From an uncultured Candidatus Saccharibacteria bacterium (GTDB lineage Bacteria > Patescibacteriota > Minisyncoccia > Phycocordibacterales > UBA9973), in NCBI GenBank assembly GCA_964505155.1, contig CAZDGL010000001.1:1286-65285 (forward strand): a stretch of DNA of 64,000 bases, read 5' to 3'. Shown piece after piece: positions 1,088 to 36,307 of this stretch (position 1 is its first letter; the number at the start of each line of letters is the position of its first letter). A model generated the notes under the pieces. The model did not search any database, was not told where the DNA came from, and was given only the letters and a program-made list of their open reading frames with translations. The position numbers and the translations under genes are program-made.

Positions 1088-3636
1088 TCAAATAGATCCT
1101 CTAATGTATCCACATGTACTGTGTTCCAACCCACTGCGTTAGCAATGATTTGAACAGGTTCTCGATATCCCTTATCGAATTGCGTATGATAATCTATAAG
1201 CTTCTCGATATTCAATTCCTTCGGTAGTTCATCAATAAATCCAATAATATTGGATCGAAGTATATTAGGTTCTTTAAGCCACAGATACTTGATCTTATCG
1301 GATTCCACAATCAATGGGTAGTCTTTGTCAAATCCATTGGACTTGATATAGTTGTTATAGACTATAGCCGCACGAACATGTGCTGGACATCCTGATCTAT
1401 ACAACGTTTTAGAATCCGAATACTTCTCAATATTGTTGCATTGCTTGACGAGTGCTATTTCTTTATAGGAAACATCCTGTTTTGTGATACGAAAGGCTTC
1501 GTCCACACATGCAACAAGCTCTTCCTTCGTACCGGACACCATAATCTCGATAGCCTTCTTCATAGGAGGCTTATAGACTTCTGGTGTAGATCCCTTCTGA
1601 ATCTCCAATCCCATGATTTTCAACTTGGGAGTCTTGTATCGGACACCTTCGTCGTCATATGAATTGATGATGTAGCGCTTCTTCTTCGTCCAGATACCTA
1701 TATCCGCAAGAGATTCTCGCTTCATGTGAAGTGCGCTCTTATAGGAATTCAGATATTCTGCGAGATCGTCGCACGAATCGTCAATGACCTTCTGGAGCTT
1801 TTCCTTACATACCTTATCCATGAAATCGATAATCTTCTGGATATCGGTATCAGGCTTCATCACCTTATCGATCAGAGGCTTCAACGTGATATAGCATGAA
1901 TCGGTGTCTAGGTAAAGAACAAACTTCACGTCCTTCGTTCCGCAGACCTTGTTGAGATATTCGTTGATGACCTTCTCAACCCACAAAATTGAAAGCTTTC
2001 CAGTCACAGTAATTCCTGTTGCCTGTCGGACATCATAGTGACGGAAGTGTTCGTTTCCTGTGGCTCCGTAGGCCGAATTAAGGGATACTTTCAGAGCATT
2101 CTGCAGATTCGAATAGGTGGATGCTTCGTTCTTGAGTTGTTCAATCAACTCAATTGCTGTGGTTTCGTTCAGCTTCTTTTTAGCATCCGACATCATTCCC
2201 TTGAACTTCTTACGGTTTGCATACATTTCTTCCATGATCACCGAAAGAAAGCTCTGCTTGTCACGTCTGAATAAGTGACCGTTAGCTGCTAGAGCCAGAT
2301 TGTACTTTTTGAGAATTGAAGTATCAATCTTTTTGTTGAGAAGATTATCTACAGTGATATCATTGAAAGCCATCCACTCGCGGATCTCTTGTGGATAATC
2401 TGCTGGATCCAGAATGGTATCTGGACCAATATTTGAAAGAATGATTAGGTGTGGATATAGGGAGTCAAAGTCAAAGGACACGATATATTCGTGCTTTCCG
2501 GTAATCGGTTCTTTGACATAGGCACCTTCATACTTTTCCTTCTTCTCTCGGTCCTTCTGAGGTGGAACTACGATGTTGTCGCGCTTCAGACGATTGAAGA
2601 TGATAGCATCCCACATTGTAACCTGCTGGAAAGCGTCCTCGAAATTCACCTTTGCCTGATATGCCAGAGTGAAAACCAGCGACAGCACGTTCAGCTTGGC
2701 ATCCATCCGATCAATCAGACGAACGTCCTGAATGTTGTACTCAATGAATTTCTGGGGATTAGTTAGATGGAGCTTTCGGATACCACCTTCTTCTGTGATT
2801 GGAATCTTTCGTTCGTTTAATTCGATAAAAGCAATCGTGTCCAGCTTGTGATTTGGCTTGGATACTCCACCGGGAACGAACTTCTTATACATATCCAGAT
2901 AGTCGAGAATTGCAATTCCAATTATCTTCTTTGTGTGATAAGATTTGTCAATGGTGATGTGAACTTCTTTTTCGTAAACAATTCCCCATGGTGATAGTGA
3001 GTCAGCTTTCTCCTTACCGAAGAGCTTCTCAATTCTAGCATGTAGGTAGGGAACGTCGAAGCCTGCGATATACCAACCTGTGAGCACATCCGGGTAATCG
3101 GATGTCCATAGATTGAGGAAACGGAGGATTAGATCTGCTTCATCCCGACACTTGTAGTAGATGACATCATCGAACTTGTTTTCGTATTCAACGCACGAGA
3201 ATACATGATATTGTTCGTTCAACTGCAGCGTGATAGCTGTGATTGCTTCACGGGGATTTGCTGCCTTAGGGAATCCATAGACGGATTCTGTTTCAATATC
3301 GATCTTGGCAATCAGGAGCTTCTTGATATCGTACTCGACGTGTTCCTGTGGGAATTGCTCCGATATGAAGGCATATTCGTGCCTCGTATTGCCGAACCAA
3401 TGGAAGTTATCGATCTTCGAATATTCGTCCACGAACTGCTTACAGTCATAGATTGAATCAAAGTGGATTGGTTCGACGGAGCGACCATCAATCGTTTTGA
3501 ATCTAGTTTCTTTATCCGACAAAAGATAAAGGGTAGGAGCGAATCCTACCCTTTCTGAAATCCGTTCTCCATCTTCAATACCTCGATAGAGAATTTTGCC
3601 TTTGTGTAATTGTACGTTGGTGTAAAAATCTGTCAT
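1084..3636 (-). CDS. 43: DNA polymerase, family B (T4 gp43-like)
   Basis: 850 aa; exonuclease motif IAKIDIETE; polymerase motif LYLDTDSCY (YGDTDS-type); collinear with T4 gp43. Confidence 0.95.
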   Translation of the reverse strand: MTDFYTNVQLHKGKILYRGIEDGERISERVGFAPTLYLLSDKETRFKTIDGRSVEPIHFDSIYDCKQFVDEYSKIDNFHWFGNTRHEYAFISEQFPQEHVEYDIKKLLIAKIDIETESVYGFPKAANPREAITAITLQLNEQYHVFSCVEYENKFDDVIYYKCRDEADLILRFLNLWTSDYPDVLTGWYIAGFDVPYLHARIEKLFGKEKADSLSPWGIVYEKEVHITIDKSYHTKKIIGIAILDYLDMYKKFVPGGVSKPNHKLDTIAFIELNERKIPITEEGGIRKLHLTNPQKFIEYNIQDVRLIDRMDAKLNVLSLVFTLAYQAKVNFEDAFQQVTMWDAIIFNRLKRDNIVVPPQKDREKKEKYEGAYVKEPITGKHEYIVSFDFDSLYPHLIILSNIGPDTILDPADYPQEIREWMAFNDITVDNLLNKKIDTSILKKYNLALAANGHLFRRDKQSFLSVIMEEMYANRKKFKGMMSDAKKKLNETTAIELIEQLKNEASTYSNLQNALKVSLNSAYGATGNEHFRHYDVRQATGITVTGKLSILWVEKVINEYLNKVCGTKDVKFVLYLDTDSCYITLKPLIDKVMKPDTDIQKIIDFMDKVCKEKLQKVIDDSCDDLAEYLNSYKSALHMKRESLADIGIWTKKKRYIINSYDDEGVRYKTPKLKIMGLEIQKGSTPEVYKPPMKKAIEIMVSGTKEELVACVDEAFRITKQDVSYKEIALVKQCNNIEKYSDSKTLYRSGCPAHVRAAIVYNNYIKSNGFDKDYPLIVESDKIKYLWLKEPNILRSNIIGFIDELPKELNIEKLIDYHTQFDKGYREPVQIIANAVGWNTVHVDTLEDLFE

Positions 3637-31263: not shown

Positions 31264-31342
31264 TTTGTGATTTCTTTCCCACTGTGTACTTGCTGATTAA
31301 AATCTGCATTCTTATAAATAAAAAAGAAAGGGATATAAGGAT

Positions 31343-32074
31343 ATGCAGCAATATACACCATACACTTATTTATTAGGATGGTCAACTCCTAAAATATATT
31401 ATTATGGTGTTCGATACTCAAAAAAGAGTAAATGTTTATATTTATCAGGATGTCATCCTGATGATTTATGGAATACTTATTTTACTTCTTCTGAATATGT
31501 AAAAAATACGTATTTATTATACGGAAATCCTGATATAATTCAGATTAGAAAAACTTTCAATACTGCAAAAGAAGCTTTAAATTGGGAAAAGAAAGTTTTA
31601 ACTAGAATGAAATTACATCAGCGACCCGATTTTTTGAATAAATGTGCTGGTGGTAGTATTTTTAATGATGAAGATGTTAGAAGAAAAGTGTCGTTAGCTC
31701 TTAAAGGAAAACCATTTTCTCAAGAACATAAAGATAACATTCGAAAATCAAAACAAAACATTTCTCCTGAAATTCGTGCTAATATGAGCCGAGGACAAAG
31801 ATCCAAATCACCTCCAACAATAGAAACAAGAATAAAAAGATCTAAAAGTATGAAAAAACTTCATTGGTATAATAATGGCAATGAAAGTAAGAGATTACTC
31901 GTATGTCCTGAAGGATGGACCCAAGGTCGACTTACTTTCACTAAAACCACTACTTATATCAAATGTTCAAACTGTGAAAGAAATATATCTAAGTCAAATT
32001 TTCGGAAACATTCGACTTTTTGCCTACGGTATACTTTGACACCAGAAGATAGTCCTTCTTCTCGGAAGCCTTGA
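31343..32074 (+). CDS. GIY-YIG homing endonuclease (Seg-like) with NUMOD3 repeats
   Basis: ...KIYYYGVRYSKKS...; repeats SQEHKDNIRKSKQ / SPEIRANMSRGQRSKS; an exact TATAAATA lies 23 nt upstream (31313..31320). Confidence 0.65.
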   Translation: MQQYTPYTYLLGWSTPKIYYYGVRYSKKSKCLYLSGCHPDDLWNTYFTSSEYVKNTYLLYGNPDIIQIRKTFNTAKEALNWEKKVLTRMKLHQRPDFLNKCAGGSIFNDEDVRRKVSLALKGKPFSQEHKDNIRKSKQNISPEIRANMSRGQRSKSPPTIETRIKRSKSMKKLHWYNNGNESKRLLVCPEGWTQGRLTFTKTTTYIKCSNCERNISKSNFRKHSTFCLRYTLTPEDSPSSRKP

Positions 32075-32402
32075 TTACGGCCAACCCTGAAGCTGGTAGC
32101 TTATCTGCAATCTTCTTCTGATCAATCACCTGTAGCAATCCATAATTTTGGAGATTGTAGGCAATAGTATTTCTGCGCTTACGGTCTTCGTCCGTGAAAT
32201 CCGCGTTCTTTCCATCAAGAAGGAATAGCTCCTTGAAATGAACAATCGCATACTTTCCGCGCTTGTGTAGAATATGACAGGACTGATAAAGCGTCTTCTC
32301 CTTGGTCGACGCGATTCCCATTCTGGTCAATGTCTCTCGTATAATATGGAAGTTTTCTGGCTTATCTAATTCAACCCAAACCAAAGACTCTAAATCAATC
32401 AT
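31989..32402 (-). CDS. regA: translational repressor RegA
   Basis: ETLTRMGIA...LYQSCHIL...IVHFKE collinear with T4 RegA; the ATG overlaps the gp62 stop (TGATG). Confidence 0.85.
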   Translation of the reverse strand: MIDLESLVWVELDKPENFHIIRETLTRMGIASTKEKTLYQSCHILHKRGKYAIVHFKELFLLDGKNADFTDEDRKRRNTIAYNLQNYGLLQVIDQKKIADKLPASGLAVIKASEKKDYLLVSKYTVGKKSNVSENLT

Positions 32403-32806
32403 CACTTACCCTTTTTCTTTTTCTTATCTAATCCACCTGTATCCAATCCCTTTTTCAACTCATCGATCTGATCTTTGGTAAGTATCGTTTGATAATACTT
32501 GGCTTCCGATGCACTGCAATTATAGGCTTTAGAAATGACCGCTAGATCATCATCTTTTTCCTTTTTCATCCACGGTACAAATGGTCGCTTGTACCTTCGA
32601 AGAGAATTATAGAGAAAGTCATAATGAGATTTCTTAGTCACGTTTGGCAATCTATTCATTTCGTTTGCATAGAGAATGCAATCCATATGAAAGGATAATG
32701 CCTTATTGACTACGTACGGAACGTATTCTTTTACGTCCTGTTCGTTATTTAGAATATACTCCTTCTTTACCGTGAGTGACGGTATTACTTCTTTGAATAG
32801 ATCCAT
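32402..32806 (-). CDS. 62: clamp-loader small subunit gp62
   Basis: MDLFKEV..., VNKALSFHMDCILYANEMN and YYQTILTKDQIDELKKGL align with T4 gp62 blocks; located immediately upstream of regA as in T4. Confidence 0.65.
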   Translation of the reverse strand: MDLFKEVIPSLTVKKEYILNNEQDVKEYVPYVVNKALSFHMDCILYANEMNRLPNVTKKSHYDFLYNSLRRYKRPFVPWMKKEKDDDLAVISKAYNCSASEAKYYQTILTKDQIDELKKGLDTGGLDKKKKKGK

Positions 32807-33081
32807 TCATCATCTCTTTAAAAAACCATAGTTTATTAGTTAATCTCTGCTCTGGAGGAATATCCTCCAACTTGATTTTACTAAAGTCTACTCCAGCAAA
32901 GCAATCATCACACATTAGTAATCTGAGCTTTCTACCCACCAATCATGACCACATTGACACTTGTAGTGATAATCTTCGTAGGCTCCATCAGAACTTTCAT
33001 CCAGATAGTATAATATCTCATTCGAGCCACATTTGCGACACTTGAAATTAGGGTTCTCGTCCTTCGTTGACTTCCACGTTA

Positions 33082-33564
33082 TCATACCATACTCCACTCT
33101 GAAGGAGAATGCTCCTTCATCACCATAGCTGCTTCTTTAGGGATATTGCAGAGAAATTTCATGTTTGGTTGGAAGATCGGTACGAGATACATGATCCGAC
33201 CGTCCAACGTTCGCTTCTTCCGGTAGTCCAGAAGAAGCTGTTTCCCTTCAATGATGTAGATCTTATTTTCGGATTTATGTGGCTTCATCCCATTTGGGAT
33301 CGAACAAAACACTACAAGGTCTGCAGCGATGCATTTCGGCCAGTCATTGGACATTCTACCCATTTTGTCGGAATGACGCAAGGTAAAAGCATCCTCAGTC
33401 ACCCATGGTGTCTGGGACTTGACTTCGACGTTTTTGCCACCGATAGTCAAGTCTTTTTCCATATCGAACCAGTCATGAGTAATAACTTTTCTGTCTAGAG
33501 TCTTGAAATACTCAGCTACGAGCTTCTCACCCTCTAGACCTACGACACCACGATCTACGCTCAT
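33082..33564 (-). CDS. hypothetical protein
   Basis: 160 aa ORF between gp44 and gp62. Confidence 0.4.
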   Translation of the reverse strand: MSVDRGVVGLEGEKLVAEYFKTLDRKVITHDWFDMEKDLTIGGKNVEVKSQTPWVTEDAFTLRHSDKMGRMSNDWPKCIAADLVVFCSIPNGMKPHKSENKIYIIEGKQLLLDYRKKRTLDGRIMYLVPIFQPNMKFLCNIPKEAAMVMKEHSPSEWSMV

Positions 33565-33567
33565 TAC

Positions 33568-33780
33568 TCAATCAACAATTTCCCAATCGTCTGAAAGTAT
33601 ATCAGCTTGATTAGCTAACCAACCCGGTTGATATTTACCTTGAGCAGTAAACATTACTATATAAGGTTCGTACTTTTCGTACTCAGTTTCTAAATATAGA
33701 TACATGTTTTTGCCGTTCCATCCAGAACGTCTAACAAAATTTCCATTTTTTAGTTCTTCAATTGCTTGTCCAAAATTCAT
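33568..33780 (-). CDS. hypothetical protein
   Basis: 70 aa; its ATG overlaps the HNH stop (ATGA). Confidence 0.35.
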   Translation of the reverse strand: MNFGQAIEELKNGNFVRRSGWNGKNMYLYLETEYEKYEPYIVMFTAQGKYQPGWLANQADILSDDWEIVD

Positions 33781-34349
33781 TTAAACTCCAACTCTGCCAT
33801 CAATTCGGTTAGACATGCAGCATCAACATGTCCATATTTAATTCTGTTTTCTTTCCACTCTAACATTTGTAAATTATCCTTACTAGCAAGTATTTCAGGT
33901 TGAATAGAATTATTCCATCCATATATAATAGAGATTTTATGATCTAATTGATATCCACCTTCTACACCAGATAATGTTCTAGGATAATTATTAGGATTAA
34001 TTTCATTCATATGTTTAATATATGTTCGTTCTGTCAACACTCTTACTTTTGATAGATAGCTTTTAAATTTACGATTTCTTCTATCTGGATTATAAGATGG
34101 ATGGTTTGAGCCACTTCTATTTTTACCATACCAAGGATTATTTTCACCTTTCCATCTATCTGAAGATATATAATTACCTTGTCGTTTTTGTCCAGTTTGA
34201 GATTTCTGGTATTTTGCTATACTATCATGAGAATCTGCAGTTAATCCTTTATTCCAAGGAGATTTTCCAGTATTATCTGGAAGTATACCTCTAGCAACTC
34301 TTTTTTTAGCAGATTCCGACATTTTGCGTCGGGTTTCGTCTGAAATCAT
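33777..34349 (-). CDS. HNH-family homing endonuclease with N-terminal NUMOD3 repeat; the last 14 codons duplicate the gp44 C-terminus
   Basis: SDETRRKMSESAKKR (NUMOD3); C-terminal LDHKISIIYGWNN...NLQML (HNH-like); ends ...AACLTELMAELEFK, as does gp44. Confidence 0.7.
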   Translation of the reverse strand: MISDETRRKMSESAKKRVARGILPDNTGKSPWNKGLTADSHDSIAKYQKSQTGQKRQGNYISSDRWKGENNPWYGKNRSGSNHPSYNPDRRNRKFKSYLSKVRVLTERTYIKHMNEINPNNYPRTLSGVEGGYQLDHKISIIYGWNNSIQPEILASKDNLQMLEWKENRIKYGHVDAACLTELMAELEFK

Positions 34350-34356
34350 TTAATTT

Positions 34357-34409
34357 CCCTATTCGTCGCAGATTATTGCAGTTATTTATGTTATCTGCGA
34401 CGAATAGGG
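34357..34409 (-). promoter_or_regulatory. 17-bp perfect hairpin with a CATAAATAA-containing loop, sequestering the HNH gene SD
   Basis: ccctattcgtcgcagat / atctgcgacgaataggg; the loop contains (minus strand) CATAAATAACTG; the 3' stem ends in AGGGA 7 nt before the ATG. Confidence 0.6.
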
Positions 34410-34416
34410 AAATATT

Positions 34417-35352
34417 TTATTTAAATTCTAACTCTGCCATTAATTCCGTGAGGCAAGCTGCTAGGCAAAGTTCTTGATCAGCTACAAAAGCTGCCTTATA
34501 CTGATATTCGTTCAGGGTTATGATTGCCTGTGGTTGTGATTCAGGAACAACAAAATCACCAAGTGCATCAGTCAATCCACGGATGATATGAACTGAATCC
34601 CCATCAGAATTATCAGTCACCCACTTACGCATCACCTTGAAATCCTTGGCCTTCAAAGCAGCTAGAAGTTCAGGAAACTGTCGGATGTTCGGAATTGCCG
34701 CAATAGCGCGAGCATCAATAGGTCCAAACTTGGAGATCTTTTCAAGTTCACCAAGGATCCGTCGATAGTCCGGAAAGAACTTCATGATGAACTGGACGAC
34801 GGCTTTTTGTTCGTACTGAACGTCATTGTCCTCAAGAATGACTTTGATGCGTTCCATGAACGCTGCTGCCATAGCAGGCTTTTCCTCCTTGCGCAGATTG
34901 AAATCCACGTTCGGACATCTGGAATGGATAGCCTCAATCAACTTGGCTTTGTAGTTGCAAGTCAGAATGAAGGATACGTTCGATGAAAATTCTTCAATCG
35001 AACCACGAAGTGCTCCTTGAGCATCCGCTGTCAGACCATCAGCTTCATCGATTATCAGAACCTTCTTGCCACCGTCAAGAGAAATCGTGGAGGCATAGTT
35101 TCGCATCTTGGTTCGGATCGTATCAATGCCTCTTTCTTCTGAAGAATTGATCTTCATATAGGAAGCACCAATTTCCTTACATAGAGCCTCAGCTACGGTT
35201 GTCTTTCCAATGCCCGGTCCACCGAAGAATAGCAGATTAGGAAGGTTGCCTTCTTTGACGTAACCCTCGAATACTTTCTTGAGTCTATCAGGAATGATGC
35301 AATCATTGATAGTTTGAGGTCTGTATGCCTCTACCCATAAATTTTCTGCCAT
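34417..35352 (-). CDS. 44: clamp-loader large subunit gp44 (AAA+ ATPase)
   Basis: Walker A GGPGIGKTT, Walker B LIIDEAD, RFC-like layout, 311 aa. Confidence 0.9.
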   Translation of the reverse strand: MAENLWVEAYRPQTINDCIIPDRLKKVFEGYVKEGNLPNLLFFGGPGIGKTTVAEALCKEIGASYMKINSSEERGIDTIRTKMRNYASTISLDGGKKVLIIDEADGLTADAQGALRGSIEEFSSNVSFILTCNYKAKLIEAIHSRCPNVDFNLRKEEKPAMAAAFMERIKVILEDNDVQYEQKAVVQFIMKFFPDYRRILGELEKISKFGPIDARAIAAIPNIRQFPELLAALKAKDFKVMRKWVTDNSDGDSVHIIRGLTDALGDFVVPESQPQAIITLNEYQYKAAFVADQELCLAACLTELMAELEFK

Positions 35353-35639
35353 TAAGAAACCCTATTTGCGAACAACTCGGAGAATACAAACTCGACGTAT
35401 TCTTCCTCTTCTTTCACTTCTGCAAAATTGTCCTTGTGATAGGTACGAGCTAACTTGCGAGCTACCTTTTTCTTGATACCAATCTCATCCTCAATCCGCT
35501 GAAGAATGGACTTGATTAGATCTCGCTCACCACCAATGCGAACTAGAGAATTATCGATCTCTATAATCGCATCGTGGAGCTTCTTCTTGTCTTCGGGATT
35601 TAGGTGAGAAGGTTGCACATCATCATTTTCAATAGTCAT
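35352..35639 (-). CDS. hypothetical protein between gene 45 and gene 44
   Basis: 95 aa ORF with overlapping start and stop. Confidence 0.4.
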   Translation of the reverse strand: MTIENDDVQPSHLNPEDKKKLHDAIIEIDNSLVRIGGERDLIKSILQRIEDEIGIKKKVARKLARTYHKDNFAEVKEEEEYVEFVFSELFANRVS

Positions 35640-35644
35640 AACAA

Positions 35645-36307
35645 TTAATCCTTAGCTTTGGACCGAGCAATAACATAGGAGAGACGTCCATCGGACGATA
35701 CGAACTTTCCGGTTCTCTCATGGATTGACACCGTATAGGCATCTGGGATAAAGCGCATCAGATCGAGCTTGAACGATGCATTGAAATCCTCACCCTCGAA
35801 CTTCTCAGGGAGCGTGAATTCCATTTGATTGGAAGTCTCGTCCTTCGGATCTACACCACGAATGGAGAGTACTTCATCAGATCCTGATATTACCACATCC
35901 TTGAGATTAGTCAAAGCGCAAAGTGATAGGATCTTATTGAAATCGTCCTTCTTTAGAACAAATTCCGTGATGGGTTCAGTGATCTTGATATTCTTATCCT
36001 TAGGAATAGATACCACCAGATCCGGTGCCGCAGCACGATAGACCACCTTGAAGCCACCAGAAGAAATGGTAGCAGCATCCTCATCAAATTCCACATTCAC
36101 GTCCTTGAATTCGGATACGCAACTCAAGAATGTTCCCAGATCATAGATAGCAAAATCTAGAGGGAAATCTTCGTCTAGTTCAACCATGGCAAACGATGAC
36201 TTTTGCTCATCACAGGTTCGCTGGTTCTTTCCCGGTTGAAGCACGATACCCGGATTCAACTGAGTAAAGTTCTTCAGAATTTTAATAGTACGTTCAGATA
36301 GCTTCAT
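35645..36307 (-). CDS. 45: sliding clamp gp45
   Basis: MKLSERTIKILKNF...FAIYDLGTFL collinear with T4 gp45 (MKLSKDTTALLKNF...AIYDLNGFL). Confidence 0.9.
   Translation of the reverse strand: MKLSERTIKILKNFTQLNPGIVLQPGKNQRTCDEQKSSFAMVELDEDFPLDFAIYDLGTFLSCVSEFKDVNVEFDEDAATISSGGFKVVYRAAAPDLVVSIPKDKNIKITEPITEFVLKKDDFNKILSLCALTNLKDVVISGSDEVLSIRGVDPKDETSNQMEFTLPEKFEGEDFNASFKLDLMRFIPDAYTVSIHERTGKFVSSDGRLSYVIARSKAKD

Follow-up and report, generated by a model that had tools for sequence, protein, structure and literature searches.

Homing endonuclease genes (HEGs) are usually said to enter coding sequence only by way of introns or inteins, or by splitting the gene that receives them. In T4-like phages, the described routes into genes are splitting with terminal extensions and carriage by introns or inteins (PMC2988022; bioRxiv 10.1101/2022.08.31.505936). 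MobA in gene 60, a topoisomerase gene, and MobE in nrdA of Aeh1 are free-standing HEGs inside T4-like genes (bioRxiv 10.1101/2022.08.31.505936; PMC2988022), and intergenic "intronless homing" is known for T4 SegB, SegE, SegF, SegG and MobE (PMC2988022, PMC2330249, PMC2790892). Fungal mitochondria hold a further type, mobile open reading frames (mORFs) that come with a foreign C-terminus, as in atp6 of Allomyces macrogynus and atp6, atp9, cox2 and nad3 of Glomus (PMC3630166). Here we analyze gene 44, which encodes the large clamp-loader subunit gp44, and the endonuclease open reading frame (ORF) behind it in a 64,000-nt stretch (the window) of contig CAZDGL010000001.1, from an assembly (GCA_964505155.1) deposited as an uncultured Candidatus Saccharibacteria bacterium. 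We consider it likely that a 640-bp mobile cassette entered gene 44 within its 3′ end, carried in a replacement for the gene end and displaced the original one onto the endonuclease ORF.

The window shares with the fungal mORFs the order of gene body, inserted replacement C-terminus, endonuclease ORF and displaced native C-terminus. In both, the endonuclease is in some instances in phase with the piece of the host gene, and the copies differ largely at synonymous sites; the fungal native piece is the one nearer to relatives, and the 42 bases compared suggest the same for the window. The window differs in being a phage genome rather than a mitochondrion, in having an endonuclease with NUMOD3 and an HNH motif rather than a LAGLIDADG or GIY-YIG enzyme, in a replacement end with its own stop codon and a spacer with predicted regulation (hairpin and late promoter), and in a duplicated piece of only 12-17 codons. 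With MobA/gene 60 and MobE/nrdA it has in common a free-standing HNH-type HEG in a conserved gene of replication or nucleotide metabolism without intron or intein, extra coding sequence that keeps the host gene functional, repeated independent insertions at the same site and progressive decay of the endonuclease. In those systems, however, the host gene is split into two polypeptides with new C- and N-terminal extensions, to which gene 60 adds a bypass, whereas the element here supplies gp44 with a whole new C-terminus and so keeps it in one piece, with a short, non-essential remnant left over. As in T4 intronless homing, the HEG lies beside the gene that it presumably cuts, flanking markers are co-converted, and the HEG marks an exchange boundary (PMC10448857). 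Most members of the window's endonuclease family are arranged like the T4 intergenic HEGs, after the gp44 stop codon, whereas in the window and at least four other lineages the HEG is placed within the coding sequence, whose end it duplicates. Replacement of a C-terminus is thus already known, mainly from fungal mitochondria, and the phage version is new; our literature search returned no phage report of a C-terminal duplication made by an HEG, which is absence of evidence within the literature searched.

All genes of the gp44 neighborhood in the window lie on the minus strand (Table 1). gp44 aligns with the T4 gp44 structures 3U5Z and 8UNF from end to end (E = 1e-44), and the peptide that is repeated at this locus is therefore the true C-terminus of the clamp-loader subunit. 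An earlier note on this DNA had seen the last 14 codons of gp44 repeated, at about 80% nucleotide identity, as the end of an HNH ORF, and a repeat search found the same: a direct repeat of 46 nt (33776-33821 and 34416-34461) with 80% identity and a start-to-start spacing of 640. The two tail peptides are identical (14/14), 8 of 42 coding bases differ between the copies, all 8 of them synonymously, and the local alignment of the gp44 tail with the region around the end of the endonuclease ORF reaches z = 12.1 against shuffles. At the upstream copy, gp44 reads ...LAACLTELMAELEFK-TAA and a hairpin follows. The endonuclease ORF proper has no stop codon of its own and ends, with the second copy, in ...KYGHVD-AACLTELMAELEFK-TGA. 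The last codons of this downstream tail hold GGAG and an AAATGA stop/start overlap for the next gene, the ATG of a Tad2-like ORF overlapping the stop of the endonuclease-tail fusion (ATGA). A shared terminator was considered as the source of the repeat and rejected: the similarity lies in the coding tails, outside the hairpin, and no T run follows the hairpin on the minus (coding) strand.

An HEG-less relative shows what the junction looks like with one gene end. A near-DNA search of the 3.8-kb region in INPHARED gave only a 58-nt regA match and no close cultured relative; gp44 was at most 50% identical to proteins in phage records (tblastn) and at most 55% in a scan of IMG/VR, and no empty site came from either; exact-protein look-ups of the endonuclease and of gp44 found no match on record. 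A large protein collection held one gp44 relative, 74% identical in amino acids (P0002), on three short metagenomic contigs (loci L081-L083 in our numbering). Their gp44 has the same 14 C-terminal residues (...AACLTELMAELEFK) in a single tail copy, and in AAATGA its stop codon overlaps with the start of the gene behind it, a homologue of ORF160; endonuclease, second tail and Tad2-like ORF are absent, and so is the duplicated segment as such. In the window, the AAATGA junction is kept only by the downstream tail copy, there with the Tad2-like ORF, and this copy differs from the HEG-less tail at 8/42 bases, against 12/42 for the upstream copy. The downstream copy is thus probably the displaced original and the upstream, functional copy the imported one; the difference in distance, weak when taken alone, suggests the same direction as the retained AAATGA. 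The single tail of the relative, the retained junction and the tract shared by L085 and L170 (below) all uphold the proposal of the earlier note that a cassette went into the 3′ end of gene 44 and provided a new end, with the previous end left as an in-frame fusion to the endonuclease.

The same comparison bears on the history of gp44 itself. The drop in identity between window and relative (Table 1) starts at about 35400-35350, at the gp44 start, and persists to the gp44 end, and among codons for the same amino acid 49% are identical in gp44 versus 60-65% in the flanks. The distances of the two tail copies from the relative (8/42 and 12/42) parallel this contrast, the flanks being 82-86% and gp44 71% identical in nucleotides. 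Far more divergent than its accessory neighbors, this core replication gene has a separate history, which indicates that the clamp-loader gene was replaced in one of the two lineages, window or relative. On its right the divergent tract ends at the endonuclease cassette, which is what co-conversion of markers next to a homing endonuclease gene would give; nucleases are known at boundaries of genetic exchange (PMC10448857). A search, against the relative, for a separate co-conversion tract within the 3′ end of gp44 in the window was given up, the pair being too divergent and the whole gene forming the divergent tract.

Transfer of a gene end together with an endonuclease gene is seen most directly in L085 and L170, whose cassette is homologous to that of the window. 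The two loci are ~99% identical over L085 2654-3249 (5 mismatches in ~596 nt) and 55-70% identical outside this tract, in gp44 and downstream. On the right, the identity breaks off sharply at L085 3250, within the displaced tail after tgc-cta-ac; on the left, the boundary is graded from ~2569, within the last ~30 codons of gp44. Past the right boundary each genome retains its own tail and its own downstream gene. These boundaries define the transferred unit as the gp44 3′ end, its stop, the spacer, the endonuclease gene and the opening codons of the displaced tail. As judged from the alignment, horizontal transfer of the cassette including the gp44 3′ end is shown for this pair, and the assignment of the displaced copy as native and the functional copy as foreign appears clear here, since the tract holds the upstream copy and ends in the downstream one.

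The endonuclease combines N-terminal NUMOD3 repeats with a C-terminal HNH-type motif. Pfam finds NUMOD3 (PF07460) in the window protein at 22.8 bits (cut-off 20.4; E = 9e-5; residues 63-79) and in 14 of 15 family members, with a best E of 2e-16. D136, H137, N159 and N168 (D-H...N...N) are invariant in the alignment of 15 homologues, and the AlphaFold model, with a predicted local distance difference test score (pLDDT) of 88-97 over residues 91-170, places a strand (133-137), a second strand (160-164) and a helix (165-173) around this motif. Of the HNH/NUMOD identity given in the earlier note, the NUMOD half is thus found by Pfam, while the HNH (beta-beta-alpha-metal) half, to which no Pfam HNH entry answers, is a predicted assignment that rests on the invariant D136-H137...N159...N168 and the confidently modeled strand-strand-helix unit. 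The displaced tail segment is modeled at a pLDDT of about 50. In PHROGs, the family is phrog_5104, of "unknown function". In the window, GC content is low (endonuclease ORF 0.31, spacer 0.33, and 0.33 also in the Tad2-like ORF, versus 0.44 in gp44 and 0.45 in ORF160), and on L091 a homologous gene (2495-3034), whose start abuts the gp44 stop, has an internal TAA and is apparently a decaying copy; low GC and the internal stop both point to a selfish element.

Between gp44 and the endonuclease ORF, the spacer looks like a control region. Its hairpin, which the earlier note had rightly placed between the two copies and had put at 17 bp, measures 21 bp, with arms that are 100% complementary (RNA fold -33.5 kcal/mol, z = -8.4). 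Its 3′ arm spans the likely Shine-Dalgarno sequence AGGGAA (34355-34360), 5 nt before the endonuclease ATG, and the loop contains a late-promoter-like motif. In at least 12 other lineages, the corresponding position behind gp44 and ahead of the homologous endonuclease gene holds a perfect TATAAATA, and significant hairpins were found in 5 of 8 other spacers folded. In L100, the loop contains TATAAATA and the 3′ arm AAGGAGG; L089 has its ribosome-binding site and start codon base-paired; the L086 hairpin is just upstream of the ribosome-binding site and does not cover it. The arms of the window hairpin (TCGTCGCAG...CTGCGACGA) were also scanned for in IMG/VR, with 26 unrelated palindromes and 0 adjoining gp44. 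Translational control by hairpin and late promoter is documented for I-TevI, I-TevII, I-TevIII, segB and Aeh1 mobE (PMC2988022), where the late promoter is placed so that late transcripts lack the 5′ arm. The window layout, as predicted from sequence, resembles this, with a promoter motif that is a 7/8 match (CATAAATA). By analogy, the window endonuclease may be under late control of the T4 type: in read-through transcripts the ribosome-binding site would be hidden in the hairpin, in transcripts started in the loop it would be free, and expression would be limited to late infection as for I-TevI.

Homologues from protein searches, IMG/VR and metagenomes were placed in their contigs, which gave 36 distinct full-length (NUMOD3 + HNH) homologues with enough upstream sequence, from environmental T4-like lineages. 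Twenty-nine of the 36 lie directly after gp44 (30/36 counting L176), compared with none of 35 homologues that share only the HNH domain. The position follows the NUMOD3-bearing homologues and not the HNH-only ones, so location goes with the DNA-binding half of the protein, as site-specific homing would predict. The host phages are highly diverse, with gp44 27-61% identical to that of the window, and presence at the fixed site is sporadic: the endonuclease follows gp44 in the family, is absent from the nearest relatives L081-L083 and, among the 80 best gp44 loci of IMG/VR, is missing from all but those retrieved via the endonuclease itself. The "HNH endonuclease" PHM1_141 of Prochlorococcus phage P-HM1 (NC_015280; 3939-4583 of L084) also lies directly after gp44, with overlapping stop and start; tried as a family homologue, it was rejected (BLASTP E = 2.3, no Pfam match) and is an unrelated gene in this position. 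Mobile nuclease genes of different kinds seem to have a hot spot at the gp44 3′ end.

So constant a location could also mean that the protein is no selfish HEG but a conserved accessory nuclease acting together with the clamp loader, and that the duplication came from an incidental rearrangement. The 30/36 lineages directly after gp44, the "unknown function" of the PHROGs entry and a homing function that is read from sequence are compatible with this. We nevertheless regard it as improbable, given the absence from the nearest relative and from those 80 loci, the low GC, the one pseudogene copy, the 99%-identical copy between 55-70%-identical flanks in L085/L170, the late promoter and hairpin of its own like those of known HEGs, and the unrelated endonuclease genes at the same site (PHM1_141 and an HNH_3 ORF in L109).

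Second gp44-like tails, sought across the fetched loci of the family, recur. Displaced tails of 12-17 codons occur in five lineages (window, L085/L170, L177, L100-L104 and L109), and the order of gene body, inserted C-terminus, endonuclease ORF and displaced C-terminus is found in the window, L085, L170, L177, L100 and L109. The endonuclease of L085 ends ...KSNKLVD-CLTEIIVDCEIK, with several amino-acid differences from the resident gp44 tail VAMLTELMVDVEFK; that of L170 ends ...KSNKLVD-CLTELMVDTEFQ, 10/12 residues identical to the resident VACLTELMVDVEFK; that of L177 ends ...SKNI-SACMTELMSSVEWNK, differing from the resident VACMTELMSSVEWTKQ mostly synonymously, with 1 non-synonymous change within ACMTELMSSVEWxK. 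In L100-L104, the tail sits on a 60-aa C2H2 mini-ORF behind the endonuclease gene (...NEID-ACLTEIMTDCEFK; resident ...ACLTEIMTDCEFK, 13/13 residues identical, 6/39 bases different, all synonymous). In L109, two tandem endonuclease genes are followed by INLLAALTEIMCECEFK, which abuts gp62 and is identical in protein to the resident tail (17/17 residues; 11/51 bases different, all synonymous). The L139/L145 clade has probable remnants of 4-7 tail codons after the endonuclease stop; in most family members the protein stops at ...KSNK and has no tail. Every displaced tail agrees with the resident gp44 of the same lineage, which implies separate events or at least separate right-hand crossovers. 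Purely synonymous divergence implies that each copy was in use as a gp44 end, in a genome of its own, while the two drew apart. The junctions are located at codons -12 to -17, within the conserved ...NL.ACLTE.M... block of gp44. A blastn search among the fetched loci found no HEG-less empty site close enough to L085, L170, L100, L109 or L177.

Two of these loci carry further genes. In L109 (1064-2470), the NUMOD3/HNH-family gene and then an unrelated HNH_3 ORF (227 aa) stand between the functional gp44 end and the 17-codon tail. In L100 (2958-3140), the mini-ORF, which is C2H2 zinc-finger-like, overlaps the endonuclease stop (ATGA) and carries the tail in frame.

That the tail stays in the original frame of a long ORF in 4 of 5 independent lineages (window, L085/L170, L177, L100) raises the question of whether it is a functional module, docking to the clamp-loader collar or gp62 or coupling translation of the next gene. 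The window peptide is perfectly conserved despite 19% base divergence, and the tail bears GGAG and the AAATGA overlap; this coupling part would be compatible with insertion of a cassette. Yet the fusion partner varies from the endonuclease to the mini-ORF of L100 to essentially nothing (L109), tail length ranges over 12-17 codons with most members tail-less at ...KSNK, the segment is modeled at a pLDDT of about 50, and the displaced tail of L085 has diverged from the resident gp44 tail, all of which makes a module very unlikely. We dismiss as most improbable a tandem duplication of the gp44 end in situ, by slippage or illegitimate recombination at the arrival of an intergenic endonuclease gene with later drift and no imported end, for although target duplication can yield direct repeats around an insert and the two peptides are identical, drift of a redundant copy should be mostly non-synonymous whereas all 8 differences (11 in L109, 6 in L100) are synonymous, the L085/L170 tract carries the gp44 3′ end with the cassette, and the whole gp44 upstream of the window cassette has a history unlike its flanks.

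Table 1. Features around gene 44 in the window; identities are those between the window and the HEG-less relative (L081-L083).
Feature	Position	Strand	Identity to relative	Remarks
gp45	35645-36307	-	85.5% nt, 90% aa (C-terminal part)	
DsbA-like ORF	35352-35639	-	81.6% nt, 91% aa	
Gene 44, clamp-loader large subunit	34417-35352	-	70.9% nt, 74% aa	311 aa; Pfam AAA, DNA_pol3_delta2, Gp44_lid
Present gp44 end (upstream tail copy)	34417-34461	-		last 14 codons + stop (TAA); ...LAACLTELMAELEFK
Spacer between gp44 and endonuclease ORF	34350-34416	-		67 nt
Perfect 21-bp hairpin	34353-34413	-		5′ arm 34393-34413, loop 34374-34392 (19 nt), 3′ arm 34353-34373
Late-promoter-like CATAAATA	34383-34390	-		in hairpin loop; 7/8 match to T4 late promoter TATAAATA
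Endonuclease ORF including tail	33777-34349	-		190 aa; ends ...HVDAACLTELMAELEFK and stop
Endonuclease ORF proper	33822-34349	-		176 codons; N-terminal NUMOD3 repeats, C-terminal HNH-type motif
Downstream displaced tail	33777-33821	-		last 14 gp44 codons + TGA; in-frame C-terminus of endonuclease ORF
Tad2-like ORF (Thoeris anti-defence 2)	33568-33780	-		70 aa; Pfam PF11195, E = 3e-26
ORF160	33082-33564	-	85.9% nt, 93% aa	native downstream neighbor of gp44 in this phage clade
ORF60	32915-33097	-		
gp62	32402-32806	-		
regA	31989-32405	-		

The insertion can be pictured as follows. The cassette would run from 34461 down to 33822 on the minus strand, placed 14 codons upstream of the original gene-44 stop, and would consist of the replacement last 14 codons with TAA, the 67-nt hairpin spacer and a stop-less ORF with NUMOD3 and the HNH motif; the displaced original 14 codons would now end the endonuclease ORF and retain the stop/start overlap with the next gene. 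The enzyme would cut gp44 alleles that lack the HEG, within the conserved ...NL.ACLTE.M... coding block or close to it, and repair would copy the cassette from a co-infecting genome that carries the HEG, with the gp44 body as left homology and the displaced tail as right homology. The DNA behind gp44 differs among phages (ORF160, gp62, DUF4419 or other genes), and a right arm made of the displaced tail would make invasion independent of this hypervariable DNA. Since the carried tail is synonymously recoded and the old tail lacks its left half, both are expected to resist cutting, and deletion by recombination between the repeats would be reduced. With the old tail kept in frame, the downstream gene would retain its native stop/start coupling. 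gp44 as a whole was apparently replaced in the window lineage, along with the cassette.

Several points weigh against this account. About 23 of the 30 members have no duplication, and duplication is not required for residence after gp44. In the window, the polarity argument consists of 42 bases (8 versus 12 differences) and the AAATGA junction; two genomes cannot decide which lineage exchanged gp44, and the distance to the relative is too great for mapping a co-conversion tract. The donor may already have had the duplication, in which case the downstream tail need not be this lineage's own. We found no near-identical copy of the window cassette elsewhere, and the transfer is seen for a homologue ~60% identical in amino acids. 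On the side of the enzyme, curated HNH profiles stay below Pfam thresholds, Foldseek matches to solved HNH domains are not significant, and the target site is putative, being deduced solely from junction positions. The loop motif CATAAATA differs from TATAAATA, shows no enrichment by count and alone is not significant.

Around the cassette, the earlier note had made the insertion responsible for a gap of roughly 1.6 kb between gene 44 and 62/regA, which does not hold: the cassette accounts for 640 bp, and ORF160 is native, standing directly after gp44 in the HEG-less relative. Genes 44 and 62 are also separated by several ORFs in other marine T4-like phages, and from these arrangements the gap is evidently not caused by the window insertion. 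Weaker homologues of ORF160 (36%) follow gp44 in L001, L002 and L004, and neither ORF160 nor ORF60 (together 32915-33564, between the Tad2-like ORF and gp62) has a Pfam or PHROG match. The Tad2-like ORF lies outside the duplication, as a neighbor and not part of the cassette, and may be an independent insertion or hitchhiking cargo; SegB has been tied, in a 2026 paper, to the amplification of anti-defence loci (PMC13096335). A second, unrelated homing-endonuclease-like gene lies on the opposite strand (31343-32074, plus; 243 aa; GC 0.31), with a GIY-YIG-like N-terminus and a match to phrog_314 "homing endonuclease" (E = 1e-12). It has a perfect T4 late promoter, TATAAATA, 23 nt upstream (31313-31320), and its 3′ end is convergent with that of regA, with an overlap of 86 nt.

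Tentatively, and with a little less than even confidence, we extend these observations to the family as a whole. phrog_5104 would be a widespread, unannotated family of gp44-specific HEGs that carries a portable, cut-resistant, recoded gp44 end, uses the displaced tail as right arm and coupling signal, and drags clamp-loader genes, possibly with Tad2-like cargo, between distant phages; this would be a fourth route into coding sequence besides introns, inteins and gene splitting. On the likely reading set out earlier, the gp44 locus and its relatives represent a phage HEG family that avoids introns, inteins and splitting by carrying a replacement gene end. They offer a candidate site-specific nuclease for a conserved clamp-loader sequence, and a natural series of filled, empty and decaying sites in which HEG life cycles may be followed in uncultured marine and freshwater T4-like phages. 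The window adds a concrete case of an HEG at the edge of an apparently replaced core gene (gp44 at 74% amino-acid identity versus 90-93% for its neighbors), beside an anti-defence gene. For annotation, the displaced tails explain the short in-frame "gp44-like" C-termini found on unrelated ORFs.

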